A stretch of 48,147 nucleotides of DNA. Origin: a phage. Location: sequence record PV636260.1; one strand, given 5' to 3'. The notes beneath the pieces were generated by a model. It did no database searches. It was given only the letters and a program-made list of their open reading frames with translations, and was not told where the DNA came from. The position numbers and the translations under genes were made by a program. Numbering within the stretch: position 1 is the stretch's first letter; every line of letters starts with the position of its first letter. Below, piece by piece: positions 8,373 to 48,147 of this stretch.

Positions 8373-8420
8373 GATGTTTACCTTTTTGTGCTATTTATCG
8401 GTGAACTCATTATACAGGCG

Positions 8421-8445
8421 AAAAAAAACCCGCGCAAGGCGGGTT
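8421..8445 (-). terminator. intrinsic terminator between gene I and gene J
   Basis: Minus strand AACCCGCCTTGCGCGGGTT followed by T8. Confidence 0.7.
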
Positions 8446-10559: not shown

Positions 10560-10597
10560 TTTCTTTTCCTCTTGTTTAGTTGCAACCATTCTACAGC

Positions 10598-10622
10598 TAC
10601 AAAAAAACCCGCGCAAGGCGGG
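10598..10622 (-). terminator. intrinsic terminator between M and L
   Basis: Hairpin CCCGCCTTGCGCGGG + T7 on minus strand; 22 bp identical to the terminator at 8421-8445. Confidence 0.65.
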
Positions 10623-10638
10623 CTTTTGTCATGAAGTG

Positions 10639-10992
10639 CTATTCCATAGATGTAAACTGCTCCATAAACGTTACATTAATTTCCATCACGTCACGTGATA
10701 CTGGTTTCGCTCCCAAACTATTTGGCTTAACTACCCATATCCCGATCTTCCCGTCTGGAGGCGTCCATGCGAACGGCTTGATGCGGTGAGAATCGCAGAA
10801 GTCGTAAACAGCCATGAAATCTTCCCCAGCATAGACAACTGAATACTCGCGCCGAGTGGTGTTAAATCCAGAAGATGCAAGCTGCATGTATCCGTTACCA
10901 AACTGTATGGATCTGTCATTGTTGGTAGTGGTAAGGGAGCCACCGCCCCCTTGAACCTGCGTACACCAACTGAAAGTGTCAAGTGTCGCCAT
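10639..10992 (-). CDS. minor tail protein, lambda gpM-like
   Basis: RBS CAGGAGG; 117 aa; position between tape measure and L. Confidence 0.75.
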   Translation of the reverse strand: MATLDTFSWCTQVQGGGGSLTTTNNDRSIQFGNGYMQLASSGFNTTRREYSVVYAGEDFMAVYDFCDSHRIKPFAWTPPDGKIGIWVVKPNSLGAKPVSRDVMEINVTFMEQFTSME

Positions 10993-13910: not shown

Positions 13911-14542
13911 GTTATTCTGCTTAGCAATCATTTCAAGCGCTTTCGCTTCCATGATCCTAACGTCCTGCAATGCCAGTTCTTCATCTTCTATTTTATAGAT
14001 TTTAAACAACATAGGCAAAACATTATAGTCAAGACCATAAGCGCCAGCGCCTGAACTTCTCCACTGAGTGAGCATTGATGTAAAAACATTCCAAGCCTTC
14101 ACCATTTCAGCGTCGCCAATTATCGTTTCAGGTTCCTCGTCTTCATAGTCTGAAAGACTTAAACCAACCGATCGCAATTGTTCCTCTGTTGGCGGCTTCT
14201 GATATAACAGATAGACCGCCTTTTTTAGTTTTTTGCGCGGTGTCCGGCAAGAGCCTTGATGTAAGTCGCTGTCAGGTTGTACGCTGCTGAAGGATAATAC
14301 TGAACCAGTTTTCGCGCATTTTCTTCGTTAAATTCTTCTTCAAGGTTCCATCCTGACGCGATCTTGGTAATGAACTCGCTGTCGTTCATTTCTCCCTGGT
14401 TGGCATACATATCCTGAACTTCTTTACTGGAAAGGTGGCGTACAGTGAAAATGATCGTTGCATCTTCACCGTTAGGCATGGTGAAGGTAACTGGAAGTTT
14501 GAAGTCTGGAAGTTGACCAAGAATAAAATTAAATTTAGCCAT
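13908..14542 (-). CDS. tail assembly chaperone -1 frameshift fusion product (gpGT-like)
   Basis: Slippery heptamer A_AAA_AAC (complement of 14228-14234) at the last codons of G; the -1 frame is open into ORF 13908..14177. Confidence 0.7.
14225..14542 (-). CDS. tail assembly chaperone (gpG-like)
   Basis: RBS CAGGAGAAA; 105 aa; immediately upstream of tape measure with slippery site at its 3' end. Confidence 0.8.
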   Translation of the reverse strand: MAKFNFILGQLPDFKLPVTFTMPNGEDATIIFTVRHLSSKEVQDMYANQGEMNDSEFITKIASGWNLEEEFNEENARKLVQYYPSAAYNLTATYIKALAGHRAKN

Positions 14543-14564
14543 GATATTTCTCCTGATTGGTTAA

Positions 14565-14583
14565 TGGCACTTTTTGTTAAAAG
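14565..14583 (+). promoter_or_regulatory. copy of the ATAGCAC...TAAAAC element (TGGCACTTTTTGTTAAAAG), plus-oriented within the minus-strand tail module
   Basis: 17/19 match to the repeated element; TACGAT 18 bp downstream. Confidence 0.4.
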
Positions 14584-14626
14584 AGAATAGTGCAAACTTG
14601 ATACGATGATTTTACAGAAATGAATA

Positions 14627-14647
14627 AGGGGGCGCAAGCCCCCTTGT
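14627..14647. terminator. hairpin terminator downstream of the major tail gene
   Basis: GGGGGCGCAAGCCCCC followed by T-rich tract on minus strand. Confidence 0.6.
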
Positions 14648-14656
14648 AGATATGAT

Positions 14657-15325
14657 TTAGGCACCAGGTGATGCCAGAGCGGATGAAACGAAAGTGAAAT
14701 CACCCTTCAGGGATACGGCGAGTTGTACCGTTTCCATTTCGTTTACTTGCGTAGATGGAATGTCGTTAAAAGACAAGATACCAGCCCACATGCGCATCTC
14801 GTTCGCTTTTGGAACATACATCCGAACCGCAGTTACCTGACCAGAAGAATCCAGCTTACGCAGAATAGGGTAGATCGGGTTATCAAATTCGTGCGCGAAT
14901 GTGTAAGTTAGCGAGATCGCAGATTTAAACGTTGGGATCTGCTGTTCTTTATCGTCGGACAAGCACTGATAAGTATAATACTGCTGCTCGCCGCCGTCCT
15001 GACCAATCTCCTGTACACAAGGAATCTCAGTCCAGCCAGTAATTTTTGCAAAGCTCATCGTACCGCCAGCCGGGAAAACAAGAGTATCAGAGGTGTCAAT
15101 CCCAGCGAGAGTGATGCTTGTTTCCTGGGCGTCAGTAACAATTAGCACTCGACTAACCATCTTGGCCCAGGTTGACTGAGTTACAATAACGTAATCACCT
15201 TTTGCCAAGTCGCCCTTAGATGCAACTGTAGCAACAGGATTTTTTGCGTTAGTGACAGCGGTCGCCTCGATCTCTTCTCCGCGAGAGGTTTCCACGAAAA
15301 TTTGCGCGCCATTTGGTAAGTGCAT
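14657..15325 (-). CDS. major tail protein (gpV-like)
   Basis: RBS AAAGGAGA; 222 aa; position upstream of G/GT. Confidence 0.8.
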   Translation of the reverse strand: MHLPNGAQIFVETSRGEEIEATAVTNAKNPVATVASKGDLAKGDYVIVTQSTWAKMVSRVLIVTDAQETSITLAGIDTSDTLVFPAGGTMSFAKITGWTEIPCVQEIGQDGGEQQYYTYQCLSDDKEQQIPTFKSAISLTYTFAHEFDNPIYPILRKLDSSGQVTAVRMYVPKANEMRMWAGILSFNDIPSTQVNEMETVQLAVSLKGDFTFVSSALASPGA

Positions 15326-15326
15326 A

Positions 15327-15725
15327 TTAAGTCTCCTTTGTGTCTACTCGTACTGTAAAGCGAACCGGAATCATCCATCCGCTTTCGTGTTTAACAATTT
15401 GATGCACGATTGCACCTTCGAAAATATAACCAACGTTAAGCATTTTACCATCTTTGAAAAAATCAGCAATCTCTTTTGCTTTCAATCTTGCCTCATCAAC
15501 GCCGGAACCAGGAGGGAACACAACTCCGATCTGAACTATTGCGATGTAAGATTTACACTTTCGGTCAATTGATAGATAAAGCGTATCACCTTCAATGTAG
15601 TTGAACCTTAGCCACATGCCGCCATCCTTCGGAGGTGTAAAGTTCCTGTTTTCCATGTAGTGAGGAAAGTCTCTATACTTCGACAGAAAGGCGGCGCGCG
15701 CCGCCGCTGATAACTCATAGTGCAT
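15327..15725 (-). CDS. tail terminator protein (gpU-like), putative
   Basis: RBS AAGGAGA; position directly upstream of the major tail gene in lambda-like order. Confidence 0.55.
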   Translation of the reverse strand: MHYELSAAARAAFLSKYRDFPHYMENRNFTPPKDGGMWLRFNYIEGDTLYLSIDRKCKSYIAIVQIGVVFPPGSGVDEARLKAKEIADFFKDGKMLNVGYIFEGAIVHQIVKHESGWMIPVRFTVRVDTKET

Positions 15726-17314: not shown

Positions 17315-18274
17315 TTACACGCCAGTGATTAAGACAATAGTCATCGGACGATAAATTGTAAGGCCAGTACACTTGGAGGTGCAAGGCACTTTAAAGTGAA
17401 GGTCTTTCGGCTGCGCTGGCAGCATGTTAAATGCTTCCGGGATTTCGATGGACATATTCATCGGATTTTTTTCGTACACCAGTACGCCTTTAGTCCCCGC
17501 ACCGTCGATATCTTCAAGCTCTGCGATAGAGTCGATTTCGATACCAGCATTCTGAGACTTGAAATAGTCCAGGTAAGACATGGTAGTTTCAGGCATACGG
17601 ATCGCCAGAACCTTACGCATGGACGGCGGGATCAGAATGTTGGTTGCACGATGCTGACCGCGAGTAATCGTCTCGATGGTTTCGATTGCCTGAGTCAATT
17701 CAGCTTCTGCCGTTTCCGGTTTCTGAGTTGCGCCATCCATCCACTTACCGGAGGTAATTTTGGTGATGTTCGGATGATTGAACACGGACACGATCTTGTG
17801 CGGCGCGGAACCTTTGAACACCAGACGGTTAACCAGTTGGTCATGCGCTAACTGACATGCACTTGCCTTACGAGTTGACAGTGGGCGACCAGTTGCCTGA
17901 CCCGCTTTGATTTCGTCGATTGAGATCAGATACGCGTTACCCAAACGGAACACTTTACCGAACTCAGAAGTACCCAGGGCATCAACAAGCGGCAGGTCGT
18001 CGGTGTAGTCCGCGATAATCTGAGCCGTGCCAACCTTATCAAAGGTCATGTATTCGAACGTCTTATCAGTCGGAGAAAGATCGGTTGTAACCGGGAATAC
18101 GCGTAGAGCGGAGCCGACCGGGTAGTCTTCTTCATAGGACTGGCTTTTAATGCGGTGTAGTTCCTGAGCGGTCCAGATACCCATTGTTGCGGCTGCATCC
18201 TGTTTTACGCCAGCCTGGATCAGATACATTTCAACATTGCTTTTATCTGCTTCATCAAATTTTTTAGTAGTCAT
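17315..18274 (-). CDS. major capsid protein
   Basis: RBS GGAGAAG; 319 aa; flanked by strong terminators; position after scaffold/decoration genes. Confidence 0.8.
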   Translation of the reverse strand: MTTKKFDEADKSNVEMYLIQAGVKQDAAATMGIWTAQELHRIKSQSYEEDYPVGSALRVFPVTTDLSPTDKTFEYMTFDKVGTAQIIADYTDDLPLVDALGTSEFGKVFRLGNAYLISIDEIKAGQATGRPLSTRKASACQLAHDQLVNRLVFKGSAPHKIVSVFNHPNITKITSGKWMDGATQKPETAEAELTQAIETIETITRGQHRATNILIPPSMRKVLAIRMPETTMSYLDYFKSQNAGIEIDSIAELEDIDGAGTKGVLVYEKNPMNMSIEIPEAFNMLPAQPKDLHFKVPCTSKCTGLTIYRPMTIVLITGV

Positions 18275-18295: not shown

Positions 18296-18325
18296 AAAAA
18301 AGCCGTGATTATGTTCACGGCTTCA
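18296..18325 (-). terminator. intrinsic terminator immediately upstream of the major capsid gene
   Basis: AGCCGTGAACATAATCACGGCT + T6 on minus strand. Confidence 0.65.
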
Positions 18326-18328
18326 ATA

Positions 18329-18348
18329 ATAGCACTTTTTGTTAAAGC
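18329..18348 (+). promoter_or_regulatory. copy of the repeated element (ATAGCACTTTTTGTTAAAGC), plus-oriented
   Basis: Sequence match; lies between decoration gene stop and capsid terminator. Confidence 0.4.
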
Positions 18349-18365
18349 GTCAAAGTGTTTTTATG

Positions 18366-19133
18366 TTATGCATCAACCTCTGGCTCTGGCACTGCTTCTA
18401 CGCGATAAGCAATGGTTGCCGTCGTCTTGCTGGCATCGTTAGCCGTCCATGTGATATTGAAATCACCGACCGATTCTCCACCAGCAGGAGTTACAAGACC
18501 TGAGTCAGGATCGATAGTAGCGATGTTGGTGGCGTCAATTGACCACTTGCCAGTTTTATCATCAGCGTTCACAGGAAGAACATTAGCTACGCACTGAATC
18601 GTAACATTGTTCGGCTGAGGACTTTCCTTGTCGGTAGTGATCGTAGCTGATTCAACAAGAACAACTGGAGGTGGTGGCGGTGGGACGATGAAAGCATTTT
18701 GTTTCACCTGAACCTCAATGATGTAGCCGTCTTCATGCTTAACAAATCCACCAGCGAAGGTCCAACCTGCGGAACCAGATCCACCAGTAACAACGCCACC
18801 AGATCCAAATTGCAACTTTGAGAATAAGTCGGGAGCCTCATCAAGAGAAGTAAGCGTCCACATGCGACCGTGAGAAACTACGTTGCACACTTCGCCGTCT
18901 AAGATTTTACCGCTCAGGTGTTCATATTGAGAACGGAAAGCGATACCGTAAGGAGTCCCGCCATCAGAAAGTACTTTGACGACTTTCACACCATCAACGA
19001 TGCCGACAACCTGAACCGCCGCGCCGAACTCAATGTCACCTTGAGCCACACAAGCGCCATCAATATTGTAGGTTGAAGTATCAGAAAGATTTCCCGGACA
19101 CGCCGGGCGCAACATTAAATTTTCGTAAGCCAT
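18366..19133 (-). CDS. head decoration-like protein with C-terminal Ig-like (Big_2-type) domain
   Basis: N-terminal 150 aa paralogous to 19196..19672 (DTSxYNIDGACV...GAAVQVV...); PPPPPP linker then beta-rich domain. Confidence 0.65.
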   Translation of the reverse strand: MAYENLMLRPACPGNLSDTSTYNIDGACVAQGDIEFGAAVQVVGIVDGVKVVKVLSDGGTPYGIAFRSQYEHLSGKILDGEVCNVVSHGRMWTLTSLDEAPDLFSKLQFGSGGVVTGGSGSAGWTFAGGFVKHEDGYIIEVQVKQNAFIVPPPPPPVVLVESATITTDKESPQPNNVTIQCVANVLPVNADDKTGKWSIDATNIATIDPDSGLVTPAGGESVGDFNITWTANDASKTTATIAYRVEAVPEPEVDA

Positions 19134-22844: not shown

Positions 22845-22875
22845 TAAAAAAGGCCGTCAATTGACAGCCTTGATT
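22845..22875 (-). terminator. terminator-like hairpin between TerL and portal
   Basis: AAGGCTGTCAATTGACGGCCTT + T6. Confidence 0.5.
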
Positions 22876-22887
22876 ATATCTCATTTA

Positions 22888-24456
22888 TTACCGCTTAACC
22901 ATCCCGGCGAGCCGCTTCATTCTCTCGATAGGATCATCAATGGTCAGCAATTCGATGTTCGCCGCATCCATGAAGTTATCGACGATATCATCATGCGGAT
23001 GGGTGTCATCGTAAGTGAAGGCGCTGTGTTCAGCGATAATTTCAGCAAGCATGGGGTGCTCTTCTGGCAGAACCACACGCCCGGCTTTAATAACTGGCTG
23101 AGCATCCATAGCGCGGGTAACTTTGTCTTTGTTACGCTGCAACGGAGTGATAGAGATCGGAGTCTTTTTCCTGAGGTTCTGTATAAGGCCCGTACCGCTC
23201 GCTTTATCTTCCACGTAGATTTTTCGAAGCACGCCCATTGATTTATTGTGTCTCCATGCCTGATTAACGAAAGCGGTAAATTGTTTCTCCATATCCGGCG
23301 CTTCCCACTTACCGCGAATGCCGTCAATAAAGTAAACCTTATCGTTCTTCTTACCCCACAAGCAAAAGACTGTGTAGTCGTTTAGCTCGCCTGTCTTCTG
23401 AGCGGTATCGGCAGTGATGAAACGGTAGTCGTACTTACCCGGATCTGGTTCGTCAGCGTCAAGGCTGCTGCCGTAATAAGTCCACCATTCCGAGTTAAAC
23501 ACGGAGCCACCAAGCGCGATCGGCTTCTGCTGATACTGAGAGTCAAAGGTGTACTGGTCAGCTTCGCGAAGCGCTAACAGGTCATGTACACTTTCCTTAC
23601 TGGGCCAGAACGAGTAATGCTTGACGCCATCAAGTTCGACATACTCAGACGATAAAACGTCGCGCTCGAAGTAAGGTTGTAACCAGTCAGGAAGCGTCTT
23701 TCCGTATTCTTCCGTGACCAGCGCCGGGATCGAGATCTGGTCAAACTCAATACCCATACCTCCATTCATCATAAACCAAGTTGAATCCTGCGCGTGCAGT
23801 CGCTGCTGGATTGCGATAATCGGCGTCTCGTTGTGCATACGACGGGATCGTATGGTGTTCTTCAATAGCATGTGAGTACGCTCACGCTTAACCTTTGAGA
23901 ACATATCGTCAGGCTTGTCTATATCGTCGAGCATTACCATCCCGGAGAATCCCGGCATCATATAGCCACCACGCGAACCTGTGATTCGACCTCCGGCTGC
24001 TGCGGATATTAGCTCGAACCAGACCTTGCCATCTTCGTTAAGAACTTGCATCTCTTCATCTTTCGATGTGCCGAACTTACAGGGCCACAACTCTTGGAAC
24101 TCTTTGCTGCTGATAATCTCACGAACTCGCTTACTGTTACGCTTTACAAGGCTATCTGCAAATGAAACGTTAAGGTTTCGTACCTTCTTGCACTTGAGCA
24201 TTGCGTAAACAGGAAGGTGAATTGAGAACACCTCGGTTTTACCCGAACCTGGCGTGACGTTAAAGATAGTGTTCCCGCGTCGACCTGCAATTATTTCCTC
24301 CACTTCGTGACATAGGTAAAGGTGATGCCAGTTAGGCTGGAACTGCTGCGCCTGCATAAGCTGGAACCAGATCCGAATCATTTTTTCGAAATTGGCCTCG
24401 CTCATTTTCTTGATCGCTAACTTCTGCGTTGCGTTAAGGTCTTCCCATTGAATCAT
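22888..24456 (-). CDS. terminase large subunit
   Basis: Start at ATG 24456 after GGGAGAC; Walker A-like TPGSGKT; 522 aa. Confidence 0.85.
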   Translation of the reverse strand: MIQWEDLNATQKLAIKKMSEANFEKMIRIWFQLMQAQQFQPNWHHLYLCHEVEEIIAGRRGNTIFNVTPGSGKTEVFSIHLPVYAMLKCKKVRNLNVSFADSLVKRNSKRVREIISSKEFQELWPCKFGTSKDEEMQVLNEDGKVWFELISAAAGGRITGSRGGYMMPGFSGMVMLDDIDKPDDMFSKVKRERTHMLLKNTIRSRRMHNETPIIAIQQRLHAQDSTWFMMNGGMGIEFDQISIPALVTEEYGKTLPDWLQPYFERDVLSSEYVELDGVKHYSFWPSKESVHDLLALREADQYTFDSQYQQKPIALGGSVFNSEWWTYYGSSLDADEPDPGKYDYRFITADTAQKTGELNDYTVFCLWGKKNDKVYFIDGIRGKWEAPDMEKQFTAFVNQAWRHNKSMGVLRKIYVEDKASGTGLIQNLRKKTPISITPLQRNKDKVTRAMDAQPVIKAGRVVLPEEHPMLAEIIAEHSAFTYDDTHPHDDIVDNFMDAANIELLTIDDPIERMKRLAGMVKR

Positions 24457-25035: not shown

Positions 25036-25057
25036 GTTTAACATTTAGTGCTATTTT
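25036..25057 (-). promoter_or_regulatory. copy of the repeated element upstream of TerS
   Basis: Minus strand ATAGCACTAAATGTTAAAC directly upstream of the RBS. Confidence 0.45.
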
Positions 25058-25073
25058 ACCATATTGCAGGCAT

Positions 25074-25096
25074 AAAAAAACCCGCCGAAGCGGGTT
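25074..25096 (-). terminator. intrinsic terminator ending the leftward early operon
   Basis: AACCCGCTTCGGCGGGTT + T7 on minus strand. Confidence 0.7.
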
Positions 25097-25104
25097 AGTA
25101 TTTA

Positions 25105-26809: not shown

Positions 26810-26837
26810 TTCTATTTTCTCTCTTCGTTGTCGATGA

Positions 26838-26887
26838 GGTGACTATATCAAATCACCCCACCGACGTTTTAGCAATTAGTGCTATTT
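26838..26887 (-). promoter_or_regulatory. repeated element (ATAGCACTAATTGCTAAAAC) plus hairpin with -10-like TATAGT
   Basis: Stop codon TAG of the kinase gene lies inside the element; hairpin GGTGA-N10-TCACC. Confidence 0.55.
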
Positions 26888-28096: not shown

Positions 28097-28132
28097 GATT
28101 TATTCCTCTGATCGGTTGTTTAACTCAACGAA

Positions 28133-28181
28133 GGGCACTATATCAAATGCCCTTGAGCAAGTTTTAGCAATTCGTGCTATT
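28133..28181 (-). promoter_or_regulatory. repeated element (ATAGCACGAATTGCTAAAAC) plus hairpin with TATAGT
   Basis: Hairpin GGGCA-N10-TGCCC; element abuts the stop codon of 28180..28626. Confidence 0.55.
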
Positions 28182-28626: not shown

Positions 28627-28651
28627 GAGTGTTCCCTCGTTCGTTGGTGTG

Positions 28652-28700
28652 GGGGAATCATAGCGCATTCCCCTTGATAGGTTTTAGCAATTCGTGCTAT
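28652..28700 (-). promoter_or_regulatory. repeated element plus hairpin with TATGAT
   Basis: ATAGCACGAATTGCTAAAAC; hairpin GGGGAAT-N8-ATTCCCC. Confidence 0.55.
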
Positions 28701-30251: not shown

Positions 30252-30285
30252 AACTGATTCCTCTGATTGGTTGCCATGCTTCAAT

Positions 30286-30335
30286 AAGGCCACTATATCA
30301 AATGGCCTTGCGGAAGGTTTAGCAATTCGTGCTAT
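30286..30335 (-). promoter_or_regulatory. repeated element plus hairpin with TATAGT
   Basis: ATAGCACGAATTGCTAAAC; hairpin AAGGCCA-N10-TGGCCTT. Confidence 0.55.
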
Positions 30336-31552: not shown

Positions 31553-31577
31553 GCTCTCGTCCTCATTCGTTGTCGAT

Positions 31578-31629
31578 GTGGTTACTATATCGCAACCACA
31601 TGATCGCGTTTTAACAAAAAGTGCTATTT
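31578..31629 (-). promoter_or_regulatory. repeated element (ATAGCACTTTTTGTTAAAAC) plus hairpin with TATAGT
   Basis: Hairpin GTGGTT-N10-AACCAC. Confidence 0.55.
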
Positions 31630-34209: not shown

Positions 34210-34259
34210 ATAGCACTTTTTGCTAAACGAAAATGCGGGAGGGCTGCTATAGTTCTCCC
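34210..34259 (+). promoter_or_regulatory. repeated element (ATAGCACTTTTTGCTAAAC) plus hairpin with TATAGT
   Basis: Hairpin GGGAG-N13-CTCCC with TATAGT in the loop, then RBS GAGGTAA. Confidence 0.55.
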
Positions 34260-34284
34260 ATCAACAGAAAACGAGGTAATCACC

Positions 34285-35327: not shown

Positions 35328-35378
35328 TAGCACGAATAGCTAAAGACAATCAGCAAGGGAGTAAGGTATATTACTCCC
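35327..35378 (+). promoter_or_regulatory. repeated element (ATAGCACGAATAGCTAAAG) plus hairpin with TATATT
   Basis: Hairpin GGGAGTA-N8-TACTCCC. Confidence 0.5.
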
Positions 35379-35404
35379 ACACCAAACAAACAAAGGAATT
35401 AAAA

Positions 35405-35842: not shown

Positions 35843-35892
35843 ATAGCACGATTTGTTAATATTGCCGTAAGGTCATTTGATAAAGTGACCTT
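35843..35892 (+). promoter_or_regulatory. repeated element (ATAGCACGATTTGTTAATA) plus hairpin with TAAAGT
   Basis: Hairpin AAGGTCA-N10-TGACCTT. Confidence 0.5.
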
Positions 35893-35922
35893 ATTCAAGA
35901 TAACCAATCAGGAGTTAATGCG

Positions 35923-39917: not shown

Positions 39918-39950
39918 GATATAGCCTCTTTGTTTCGATGTGGTTACTAT

Positions 39951-39990
39951 GCCCGAATCCCTTCGGGCGTTTTTATCAATTAGTGCGATC
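39951..39990 (-). promoter_or_regulatory. variant repeated element (GCACTAATTGATAAAAAC) plus hairpin
   Basis: Hairpin GCCCGAA-N4-TTCGGGC followed by TAGTAA. Confidence 0.45.
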
Positions 39991-41901: not shown

Positions 41902-41938
41902 CTTCTGATTCCTCATTTCGTTTCTATGAAATAACTAT

Positions 41939-41977
41939 ACCCGACTTTCGCCGGGTATTTTTAGCAATTAGTGCTGT
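41939..41977 (-). promoter_or_regulatory. repeated element (AGCACTAATTGCTAAAAAT) plus hairpin, TATAGT after the hairpin
   Basis: Hairpin ACCCG-N8-CGGGT. Confidence 0.5.
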
Positions 41978-42929: not shown

Positions 42930-42961
42930 TTTTATTCCTCTCGTTTTGGTGAGGTAATAAT

Positions 42962-43002
42962 GCCAGATTCCATTCCGGCATGTTTAGCAAAAAGTGCTAT
43001 TT
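42962..43002 (-). promoter_or_regulatory. repeated element (ATAGCACTTTTTGCTAAAC) plus hairpin upstream of dam
   Basis: TAG stop of the VRR-NUC gene lies within the element. Confidence 0.5.
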
Positions 43003-45441: not shown

Positions 45442-45470
45442 TTGAATCGTTGTAACGTTTACGCTATAAT
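45442..45470 (+). promoter_or_regulatory. sigma70-type promoter for the HTH regulator gene
   Basis: TTGAAT - 17 bp - TATAAT; flanked by inverted repeat AACGTTTAC / GTAAACGTT. Confidence 0.6.
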
Positions 45471-45488
45471 ACACGGCATAAAGTAAAC

Positions 45489-45510
45489 GTTTTTAGCAAA
45501 AAGTGCTATA
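45489..45510 (-). promoter_or_regulatory. repeated element (ATAGCACTTTTTGCTAAAAAC) upstream of the helicase
   Basis: Its -10-like TATTAT is the complement of the plus-strand TATAAT region. Confidence 0.5.
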
Positions 45511-45521
45511 GGAGAATCAAG

Positions 45522-45974
45522 ATGAGTATTCAACGTATCGCAGAGTCAACTGGTGAAATCGATAAACGTCACATCAATGGTAACAACGGAACACGGCGCG
45601 GTAAAGATAAAAAGCCTCGACAGCGTTGCGGGTTCTATATTCATAAAGAAGAAACACGCGCCGGACTGCGAGCGCGACTTGATGCTCTTATCGAATATTA
45701 CGGCGGCCCTGCGGCCTGCGCAAAGGCTCTAAAAGTTAGCAATCAGACGGTGCAAGGCTGGAAAGATCGAAATATGATTTCATGGCAAGGCGCTGAAGCT
45801 GCGCATCGCGCTTACCGCCGACAGGGGTGCAAAGGATTTCGTGCCGCATGGTTGCGATTCGACCTGAAGTTTGACGGTAACGGCAAGTGCCTTGAGAAGC
45901 GATGCAAGAACAAGAAATTTATGCGCGTCGTGAAGAAGGAAGATATCGGAACTACCAATAGCATTTTTAGTTAA
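45522..45974 (+). CDS. putative DNA-binding regulator (Cro/YdaS-like HTH)
   Basis: RBS AGGAGA; HTH-like AACAKALKVSNQTVQGWKDRNMIS; Cys/His and basic residues. Confidence 0.5.
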   Translation: MSIQRIAESTGEIDKRHINGNNGTRRGKDKKPRQRCGFYIHKEETRAGLRARLDALIEYYGGPAACAKALKVSNQTVQGWKDRNMISWQGAEAAHRAYRRQGCKGFRAAWLRFDLKFDGNGKCLEKRCKNKKFMRVVKKEDIGTTNSIFS

Positions 45975-46971: not shown

Positions 46972-46993
46972 CCGCCTTCTGGCGGTTTTTTAT
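46971..46993 (+). terminator. intrinsic terminator after primase
   Basis: ACCGCCTTCTGGCGGT + T6. Confidence 0.75.
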
Positions 46994-47010
46994 TGTCCAT
47001 TGCAAGTCGG

Positions 47011-47053
47011 ATAGCACAATGATAAAATCAGCGTTTAGCAATTCGTGCTATTT
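47011..47053. promoter_or_regulatory. head-to-head pair of repeated elements upstream of the tail fiber gene
   Basis: ATAGCACAATGATAAAATC (plus) and the complement of ATAGCACGAATTGCTAAAC; then RBS AAGGAG and ATG 47072. Confidence 0.5.
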
Positions 47054-47071: not shown

Positions 47072-48147
47072 ATGGCTTTATATAGACGCGGTACAGCATC
47101 AATGGATGCAGATGGAACGGTTCGCGGAACCGACACAAAATGGAAGGATCAGCTTGCTCTGATTCGAGTAGGTGCAACTATCGTATTCCTGGAGCAACCA
47201 ATTAAGCTGGCTGTAATCAGCGATATCGTGAGCGACACTGAGTTAAAGGCTATCTCTACGGATGGTCAGACTGCCGCTGACGGTAAGTATGTGATCCTGC
47301 TTAACGATTCACTGACTGTAAACGGCTTAGCTCAAAACGTTGCTGAAACGCTGCGATACTACCAGAGCAAAGAAACTGAGATTGCTGCGGCTCTTGATAT
47401 CATCAATCAGCTTGATATGGATAAACTTGAGCAAATAGTTACTGAGGTGAATAAGGCGAAATCTGATTCTCAAGCTGCGCAAAATCAGGCTGAATTAGCG
47501 CGTGACGCAGCCAACGCTGCACGAGATGAAACTAACTCAATCAAGAACCAGACTCAACAAATTGTTGACGGTGCTGTAGGTAGTATTAATGCAGCAAAGG
47601 ATCAGGCCATTACTGATATAGGATCTAAGGAATCATCTGTCATCACTCACATTGACACTGAAGAGGCGGCAGCGATTCAGGCCATTAATGACGCGAAAGG
47701 TGATTTATCTGGTTACGTTAATGACGCTCAAACGGCAGCACAAACTGCGACCTCTGCAAAAAATGACGCTCAGGTAGCGCGTGACAATGCGGTAAGCGCA
47801 AAAGATGCGGCGGCGGTAAGTGCTCAGGAAGCGAAAGACGCAGCAAATAGCGTTAATGCTGAAAACCTTTTAACTAAGGACGGTAATTTAGCTGGTCTTG
47901 TGGATAAATTAGAATCATGGAAAAACTTGAGGCCAGACGCCCCATTAGAGTTACTTAAAGATCCTGAAGGCAACATGGACGCAACTACTAAGGGTTGGGT
48001 TGAGAAAGGCCTAAAAGTAAACGACTGGTCTATTTATAAAAATGTAGACTCTGAGCCGCCAAGCGGTTCCGATTCTTCAGGCGGCAGGATTGATTCAAAA
48101 TTCAAGGTTGGTGAAGTTGATAAGTACAGATCCTCTTTCGAATTGCA
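47072..48147 (+). CDS. tail fiber protein, N-terminal part (continues through the terminal duplicate into ..899; about 615 aa in total)
   Basis: RBS AAGGAG; Ala/Gln/Asp-rich coiled-coil shaft; reading frame continuous with the ORF ending at 899. Confidence 0.8.
   Translation, partial: MALYRRGTASMDADGTVRGTDTKWKDQLALIRVGATIVFLEQPIKLAVISDIVSDTELKAISTDGQTAADGKYVILLNDSLTVNGLAQNVAETLRYYQSKETEIAAALDIINQLDMDKLEQIVTEVNKAKSDSQAAQNQAELARDAANAARDETNSIKNQTQQIVDGAVGSINAAKDQAITDIGSKESSVITHIDTEEAAAIQAINDAKGDLSGYVNDAQTAAQTATSAKNDAQVARDNAVSAKDAAAVSAQEAKDAANSVNAENLLTKDGNLAGLVDKLESWKNLRPDAPLELLKDPEGNMDATTKGWVEKGLKVNDWSIYKNVDSEPPSGSDSSGGRIDSKFKVGEVDKYRSSFEL

Follow-up and report, generated by a model that had tools for sequence, protein, structure and literature searches.

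Reversed copies of the T1-family repeat at two predicted late promoters of a T1-like phage

Why would a phage set two copies of an intergenic repeat against the direction of the genes around them? The question is raised by the DNA of sequence record PV636260.1 (48,147 nucleotides [nt], the whole of which is referred to here as the window), which is the complete genome of a T1-like phage (Tunavirus, Drexlerviridae) and is 91–96% identical to Escherichia phage T1, SA30RD, ISF002, and other Tunavirus between 13.8 and 19.2 kilobases (kb). The original prediction placed two plus-oriented copies of a short element inside the minus-strand structural block, and both were recovered to within 1 nt, copy 1 at 14564..14582 (+) (ATGGCACTTTTTGTTAAAA) and copy 2 at 18329..18347 (+) (ATAGCACTTTTTGTTAAAG), each with one mismatch to the consensus of the Drexlerviridae repeat. 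Both copies read along the plus strand and oppose the local genes. Both are true copies of the T1-family repeat ATAGCACnnnTTGnTAAAA, and we see an even chance that selection has kept them and that they place two late sigma70-type promoters under the repeat system.

The repeat was described in the 2024 re-annotation of phage TLS as a 21-nt sequence, aaATAGCACnnnTTGnTAAAA, with 18 intergenic copies (DR1–DR18) which, in the sections of that paper drawn on here, run along transcription approximately 76 nt 5′ of start codons and are also reported in T1, Rtp, and Rogue1 (PMC11447400). In the same sections its authors treat the function of the repeat as an open question, offering stoperators, enhancer sites, and UP elements as analogies, and Table S1 gives DR7 on the ‘neg’ strand within the plus-strand late region without comment (PMC11447400). 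Copy 2 is the homologue of DR7, and both copies belong to the aaATAGCACnnnTTGnTAAAA family with at most one mismatch to its 19-nt core. Neither copy has the placement that marks the TLS family, along local transcription and about 76 nt before a start codon. A text search of the literature for the motif returned the TLS paper only.

The identity and orientation of the two copies are clear. The motif GCACNNNTTGNTAAAA, at no more than one mismatch, has 17 matches in the window versus 0.29 expected. On a weight matrix trained on 137 unique canonical copies from relatives (window background mean -61), copy 1 scores 23.7 bits forward versus -25.8 reverse, and copy 2 scores 25.6 bits forward versus -22.1 reverse. 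The repeat holds a partial dyad (TAGCA-N5-TG(C/T)TA), and the half-repeat TTGTTAAA of copy 2 lies within 18337–18346; a palindrome, for which orientation would be meaningless, is ruled out by forward and reverse scores that are about 48 bits apart, and the orientation of both copies is unambiguous despite the dyad. From the mapped T1 and SA30RD records, copy 1 lies between the genes for the major tail protein (14657..15325 (-)) and the tape-measure chaperone (14225..14542 (-)), and copy 2 lies between those for an Ig-like decoration protein (18366..19133 (-)) and the major capsid protein (17315..18274 (-)). The 25-kb late block contains only one other copy that scores on the matrix, sense-oriented at the start of the block (25054, 24.1 bits), and two degenerate sense repeat-like sites at 10642 (11 bits) and 8394 (6 bits).

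What the canonical copies do bears directly on what a reversed copy might do. Repeat contexts were gathered from the replication regions of 79 relatives (252 unique), and in 87% of them offset 38, 19 nt after the repeat, is occupied by a hexamer whose second base is A and whose sixth is T (TAnnnT in 61%); at all other offsets the share is at most 20% and typically about 3%. Because this 19-nt link to a -10-like hexamer is so rigid, the repeat resembles one half of a promoter, the upstream one. The canonical copies of the window have TATAGT, TATGAT, TACAAT, CATAAT, TAAAGT, TATCAT, CATAGT, CATTAT, or TATTAT exactly 19 nt on, followed by a ribosome-binding site (RBS) and start codon 51–65 nt after the repeat. 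With the hexamer set as -12 to -7, the repeat spans approximately -50 to -32 with its dyad centre near -42, and the hexamer at the normal -35 distance (17 nt) is AAAACN. The TTG(C/T)TA of the repeat is ruled out as a normal -35 by this AAAACN and by its own distance of 22 nt from the -10. We infer a non-canonical promoter class that is recognised upstream through the repeat, which would stand in for the -35. Neither the fixed 19-nt link, in the searchable literature including the sections of the TLS paper examined, nor the reversed use of the repeat against sense promoters, in the searchable literature, has been described.

The repeat also bears a superficial resemblance to sigma54 promoters, whose -24/-12 consensus is TGGCAC-N5-TTGCW with fixed spacing. 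Copy 1 in the window (near 14565–14570) and in a few relatives reads TGGCAC exactly. A sigma54 promoter is ruled out by spacing, as the repeat reads T(A/G)GCAC-N3-TTG(C/T)T and is two bases too short.

At 14.6 kb, copy 1 has the complete promoter layout. It is followed by a spacer of 19 nt (14583..14601 (+)) that is constant in length and variable in sequence among 26 unique sequences, and then by the -10-like hexamer TACGAT (14602..14607 (+)) at offset 38 from the repeat start, with a predicted start near 14614 (A). A TACGAT 18 bp beyond the first copy had been pointed out in the original prediction and is indeed there, 18 nt after the element as it was then delimited and 19 nt after the 19-mer. 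A TG at 14599–14600 gives the predicted antisense promoter an extended -10. All 26 unique relatives with copy 1 keep TAnnnT in register and an invariant repeat, and the hexamer occurs in nine versions (TACGAT, TAGGAT, TAGAGT, TAGCAT, TATCAT, TATCTT, TAAGAT, TACAGT, and TATATT). The ten bases that follow it, GATTYTACAG, are invariant.

These ten bases are the complement of CTGTA(A/G/C)AATC, the -10 region in relatives of a predicted sense sigma70-type promoter for the chaperone/tape-measure operon. In the window, its -10 hexamer is TAAAAT (14609..14614 (-)), with a predicted start near 14602, and its -35 hexamer is TTGCGC (14632..14637 (-)), which lies across a 17-nt spacer. The intrinsic terminator of the major tail protein gene, a hairpin at 14626..14645 (-) (GGGGGC-GCAA-GCCCCC), contributes this -35 through its loop and 3′ arm. 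The hexamers match the consensus at 3/6 (TTGCGC) and 5/6 (TAAAAT) positions, below the threshold of a promoter scan, and TTGYNY is found 16–18 nt from the sense -10 in 48 of 48 relatives. The antisense -10 (14602–14607) and the sense -10 (14614–14609) are 1 bp apart on opposite strands, and each predicted start (about 14614 on the plus strand and about 14602 on the minus strand) falls inside the -10 of the other promoter; RNA polymerase should therefore bind either promoter and not both. Copy 1 itself is part of the leader of the chaperone gene on the minus strand, and 9 nt separate its 5′ end from the RBS of that gene.

The association between repeat and hexamer was assessed in 48 unique intergenic regions between the tail gene and the chaperone gene of relatives. 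The antisense TAnnnT occurs in 29/29 regions with the repeat and in 0/19 without it (Fisher test 9e-14, with shared ancestry uncorrected), and all 48 retain the sense promoter. The repeat-bearing regions resemble the repeat-free version plus a cassette of about 45 nt that separates the sense -10 from the conserved CAACCAATCAGGAG of the ribosome-site region. Since TAnnnT is never found without the repeat even though the sense promoter is kept, the antisense hexamer belongs to the repeat. The bases that the cassette imposes after the sense -10 (CA...TA) differ from those of other late promoters, and this difference, together with the lack of TAnnnT in repeat-free genomes, rules out that TAnnnT is a by-product of the sense start region. 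It was also considered whether the sense promoter is itself built from the reversed copy, as at copy 2; this is ruled out, as there is no -35 and the T at -7 is not conserved. The co-variation of repeat and hexamer, like the architecture of the sites and its conservation, is a direct observation, and it suggests that copy 1 is probably an antisense promoter.

The same cassette can be read differently. Both reversed copies may be only operators for a repeat-recognising factor, with no consequential antisense transcription and with the TAnnnT of copy 1 simply carried in by the cassette, which resembles a single indel of about 45 nt; repeat and hexamer could then occur together for historical reasons. 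We regard this as unlikely, although it is a tangible alternative that gains from the lack of an antisense -10 at copy 2 and from other copies in the late and primase regions that lack their own -10 and overlap sigma70-type cores or starts in either orientation. Against it, the spacer and the three middle positions of the hexamer have diverged, yet T at -12, A at -11, T at -7, and the spacing are invariant in 26–29 unique sequences; such invariance amid free divergence argues for selection on the -10 rather than hitch-hiking.

If copy 1 is an antisense promoter, its product is not obviously a small RNA. The original prediction had the transcript reach a hairpin terminator, and a hairpin is present at 14626–14645, 12–31 nt past the predicted start and stable as plus-strand RNA (-19.2 kcal/mol), but it is terminator-like only on the minus strand. 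Its antisense tail reads UUGUAGAU in this genome but CUGUGGAU in close relatives, with no conservation of the sequence, and the hairpin is predicted to be a poor terminator. Because the plus-strand hairpin has no conserved U-tract, a discrete RNA of 30–40 nt is not the likeliest product, and the antisense transcript more probably runs into the tail gene. A search of the whole window against Rfam 15 gave no match at the gathering score, and the region 14300–15400 gave one chance-level hit (E=0.78), so that a known small RNA or riboswitch is ruled out by the lack of anything in Rfam. A coding product is likewise not evident: no credible plus-strand open reading frame (ORF) lies downstream of copy 1, where there is only a 48-codon ORF with a GTG start at +111, and no credible plus-strand ORF start lies downstream of copy 2. 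A small ORF 3′ of copy 1 is ruled out, as it has nine codons, no RBS, and no conservation.

Copy 2 differs in its hexamer. At the canonical offset it has TATGCA, which overlaps the end of the decoration gene (its final codons and stop), and T at -7 is present in 0 of 52 genuine unique relatives; because of this, copy 2 is, judged by its conservation, not an antisense promoter. The proposal that both copies are antisense promoters for short regulatory RNAs ending at nearby hairpins is thus only half borne out. At copy 1 the layout (repeat, 19 nt, and TAnnnT) is complete and in agreement with the 29/29 versus 0/19 split, and the stable hairpin follows, but the tails of this hairpin (UUGUAGAU and CUGUGGAU) and the lack of an Rfam match speak against a terminated RNA, and the RNA need not be short; at copy 2, the T at -7 is missing in 52/52 and no plus-strand hairpin follows. 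We therefore consider short RNAs from both copies highly improbable.

In place of an antisense promoter, copy 2 coincides with a predicted sense promoter for the capsid gene, TTGACG-16-TGnTATTAT (18353–18326), which is the best promoter-like site between 13.8 and 19.3 kb (10/12, with TG). The records of T1 (AY216660, 15062..15089) and SA30RD carry a promoter annotation there. Its -35 is TTGACG (18348..18353 (-)), which in unique relatives reads TTG(ACG/CAC/ACC/AAC) (51/52) or TTGCTG (1/52), and its -10 is TATTAT (18326..18331 (-)), which reads TAT(CAT/TAT/TCT/ATT) in 52/52, with a predicted start near 18319. An A-tract upstream of the -35 is also conserved (TTTTT on the plus strand, 18358–18362). 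On the minus strand, copy 2 makes up the 16-nt spacer and the TAT of the -10 (approximately -28 to -10, dyad centre near -19), and its ATAGCA supplies the TGn of the promoter. A promoter does not need a specific spacer sequence, yet the whole repeat is kept in three subfamilies and through a change of its subtype, which argues that copy 2 is read by whatever reads the repeat. Such a reader would sit on copy 2 like a repressor on an operator and would block the capsid promoter. A shared-factor site is plausible for both copies, and the suggestion that the two are binding sites of one factor that couples the early-late switch fits copy 2 in the capsid promoter spacer and is compatible with copy 1.

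The terminator hairpin of the decoration gene (18299..18324 (-), -15.2 kcal/mol) lies directly 3′ of the capsid -10, and in Tunavirus the predicted capsid start near 18319 falls inside its 5′ arm. Transcripts from upstream would stop at this terminator, and those from about 18319 would carry half of the hairpin. In Webervirus, the terminator lies upstream of the capsid promoter instead.

The conservation of copy 2 was followed in 63 loci around capsid-gene homologues (IMG/VR). It is found reversed, 44–63 nt 5′ of the capsid start codon, in Tunavirinae, Tempevirinae, and Webervirus (57% capsid identity), and loci that seemed to lack it hold one-base indel variants. In Webervirus, the subtype is CGAATTGC in place of CTTTTTGT, with position and orientation unchanged. 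The reversed orientation is itself conserved even after this switch, and the orientation independence that the original prediction suggested as an alternative lacks support. Copy 1 is reversed in Tunavirus and many Tempevirinae. The distribution is relevant to the idea that recombination between mosaic modules left the reversed copies behind as neutral, functionless relics. The copy 1 cassette is patchy among relatives, both copies are absent in Rogunavirus, and in a Braunvirinae phage the repeat at the tail-gene/chaperone junction has the sense orientation, all of which would suit relics; however, the 19 nt are nearly invariant amid strongly diverged flanks and spacer, and copy 2 has been kept from Tunavirus to Webervirus with only its subtype changed. 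Functionless relics thus appear extremely improbable.

The combination of repeat and conventional promoter recurs elsewhere in the genome. At the regulator/helicase junction (45455–45521), the predicted repeat-type promoter of the helicase gene (minus strand, -10 TATTAT) and a near-consensus plus-strand TTGAAT-17-TATAAT share one palindromic -10. The plus-strand promoter serves a Cro/C2-like regulator gene (45522..45974 (+)), and the repeat abuts the RBS of the regulator. This promoter pair is conserved across three subfamilies and corresponds to P57/DR11 of TLS. The encoded candidate regulator is annotated as C2-like in T1 and matches Pfam P22_Cro at 23.3 bits, under the cut-off of 30.2, and a PDB sequence search with it gave no match. 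A third reversed repeat, at 47033–47051 (-), follows the primase terminator and lies 4 nt past a predicted plus-strand promoter TTGCAA-17-TAAAAT (46975–47032), covering its start site and abutting the next RBS; it has no -10 of its own (TATCCG) and is kept in Tunavirinae and, in a variant form, in Tempevirinae.

Within the late block, minus-strand terminator-plus-promoter modules are present at 8395–8445, 10585–10640, and 25050–25100 (TTGCGC-17-TATAAT, TTGCGC-17-TAGAAT, and TTCGGC-17-CAATAT), and their -35 is formed from the terminator loop and 3′ arm, as at 14.6 kb. Sense repeat-like sites lie at or after the predicted late starts at 25054 and 8394, and just before the terminator at 10.6 kb (10642). 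These modules match an older description of T1 “transcriptons” as quoted in the part of the TLS re-annotation seen here (PMC11447400). Taken together, conventional promoters in this genome tend to carry the repeat over the predicted core or start site in either orientation, and repeat-type promoters tend to carry it at -50 to -32. In many Tempevirinae (loci L019, L038–L043, and others; approximately 4.3–4.7 kb 5′ of the capsid gene), a perfect sense repeat overlaps the stop codon of the terminase large subunit and is followed after 5 nt by TATAAT and then by a terminator before the portal gene. The corresponding region of the window (22860–22960) retains the TATAAT and the hairpin without the repeat.

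The position of several of these copies next to an RBS allows for action at the RNA level, in which the complement of the reversed repeat, UUUUAACAAAAAGUGCCAU, would lie in the 5′ leader and affect the translation or stability of late messages. The ATAGCAC end does abut the RBS of the opposite-strand gene at 14564 (chaperone), 47051, and 45509, but copy 2 lies upstream of the predicted capsid start, within the promoter spacer, the canonical copies precede the -10 that they serve and hence act as DNA, and the leader complement has no notable predicted structure. Action as RNA is accordingly judged quite improbable.

Most canonical copies are accompanied by a second feature, a stable inverted repeat of variable sequence between the repeat and the start (mean folding z -2.8, 69% below -2, n=220 unique contexts from relatives). 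It often holds the -10 hexamer in or beside its loop, and its sequence differs between copies. Examples in the window lie at 26825–26866, 28120–28160, 28640–28680, 30275–30315, 31567–31607, 34229–34260, 35346–35380, and 35862–35895, among others. Possible roles include a cruciform, an RNA hairpin in read-through transcripts, and an opposite-strand terminator that uses the TTTTAGC of the repeat. In three minus-strand repeat promoters (39929–39970, 41917–41958, and 42940–42981), the spacer hairpin abuts the repeat and reads on the plus strand as a good intrinsic terminator with the tail GTTTTTATC, ATTTTTAGC, or TGTTTAGC; these could halt antisense transcripts reading through from the convergent block on the plus strand, whose end is near 38.4 kb. 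A further side observation concerns the ends of the window, where positions 1–127 and 48021–48147 are identical; the simplest reading is an assembly overlap of a circularly permuted genome with a true length of 48,020 bp.

The preferred reading of the two reversed copies, in which they bring two late promoters under the repeat system, can be stated as a mechanism. The late operon would use the repeat backwards at two sigma70-type sense promoters that start transcription anew past a terminator. The full repeat-type cassette at 14.6 kb would oppose the chaperone/tape-measure operon such that only one promoter could be occupied at once; antisense firing would occlude the sense promoter, and polymerase with its antisense RNA would run on into the major tail gene from its 3′ end. 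The reader of the repeat would, at 18.3 kb, occupy the capsid core promoter. The net effect would be that two late promoters are subordinate to the machinery of the repeat-type promoters, which serve non-structural genes, as a control of timing or dosage. A candidate reader is the Cro/C2-like protein, whose own conventional promoter faces a repeat-type promoter. From the layout of the sites we infer promoter activity, mutual exclusion, a repeat-binding factor, and the direction of regulation.

A more specific version of this mechanism, which we consider distinctly unlikely as a whole, would take the repeat as the operator of one Cro/C2-like protein produced at once from a consensus sigma70 promoter. 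From about -42 the protein would activate approximately 15 repeat-type promoters, and from core or start sites and face-to-face pairs it would repress its own promoter and the late promoters (capsid, tail chaperone/tape measure, and terminase), the late genes being freed when replicating genomes titrate the protein. If true, a virulent phage would have an early-to-late toggle timed by replication, in which one site serves in two orientations.

Several points weigh against placing the two late promoters under the repeat system. The copy 1 hexamer TACGAT is weak in its middle positions, and the 29/19 split, uncorrected for shared ancestry, might reflect a single gain or loss of the cassette. The inverted repeat of most canonical copies is absent at the reversed ones (z +1.4 at copy 1 and -0.25 at copy 2; also absent at 47051), which may count against copy 1 as a promoter of the same kind. 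TLS-like phages and Webervirus lack the copy 1 cassette. The Braunvirinae phage ACG-M12 (L067, 8612–8680) has a sense repeat promoter at the tail-gene/chaperone junction (repeat, 19 nt, TATAGT, leader, and ATG), with no separate sigma70-type promoter there and no repeat before its capsid gene, and Rogunavirus phiKP26 has no repeat at either site and plain TGnTATAAT promoters at both. The reversed arrangement is, among the genomes compared, a lineage feature and not a family-wide necessity, and the layout in ACG-M12 indicates that repeat-type promoters can drive late genes too. For T1-like phages, the searchable literature offers neither mapped transcript 5′ ends nor measurements of expression or protein binding. 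Finally, if a factor represses the late promoters, later relief would be required, and the sequence gives no sign of what relieves them; the repeat could also act without a dedicated factor.

T1 belongs to the seven classic T phages, and its transcription programme is essentially unmapped. The regulation proposed here is of a conventional kind and the result bears on a question posed by the field. The rare reversed copies appear to be the places where the repeat system meets conventional late promoters. If confirmed, the arrangement would explain the ordering of early and late expression in a phage without its own RNA polymerase or sigma factor, and would provide compact, portable promoter/anti-promoter modules for phage engineering.

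Among known systems, face-to-face promoters with transcriptional interference are found in pR/pL of coliphage 186 and in pIN/pOUT of IS10. The likeness lies in opposed promoters of which the activity of one lowers that of the other, as predicted at 14.6 kb and at the regulator/helicase junction. The predicted starts at 14.6 kb, however, are only about 12 bp apart with adjacent -10s, which points to exclusion at the binding step and not to collision, and one of the partners is a predicted non-canonical, repeat-type promoter without a gene of its own.

The repressors lambda cI (at OR2/PRM) and P22 C2 offer a second comparison, in which a repressor dimer near -42 activates one promoter and represses others. 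The dyad of the repeat lies near -42 at canonical promoters and near -19 at the capsid promoter, positions from which a single protein typically activates and represses, and the T1-like phage encodes a Cro/C2-like helix-turn-helix protein (by the T1 annotation and a weak P22_Cro match). Unlike these systems, the T1-like phage is virulent, the dyad is imperfect, the repeat is strongly asymmetric with a conserved orientation, and the Cro/C2-like protein is only a candidate binder.

Middle promoters of T4 combine a MotA box (centre -30) with a sigma70 -10 and have no -35. In both systems a phage-specific upstream box would replace the -35, but the T1 repeat lies at approximately -50 to -32; no MotA/AsiA homologue was seen in the window, although no search was aimed at them.

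Mycobacteriophage L5 is temperate, and its stoperators bind the immunity repressor and stop elongation. Stoperators and the repeat are both short, asymmetric, intergenic sites that are present in many copies with an orientation bias relative to transcription, and L5 stoperators are an analogy named by the TLS authors in the sections of their paper seen here (PMC11447400). The reversed copies share sequence and intergenic position with the repeats described in those sections, and differ from them by opposing the local genes, having no gene downstream, and overlapping a sense sigma70-type promoter. In contrast to the L5 stoperators, the T1 repeat keeps a fixed distance to a -10, an arrangement that suggests action at initiation.

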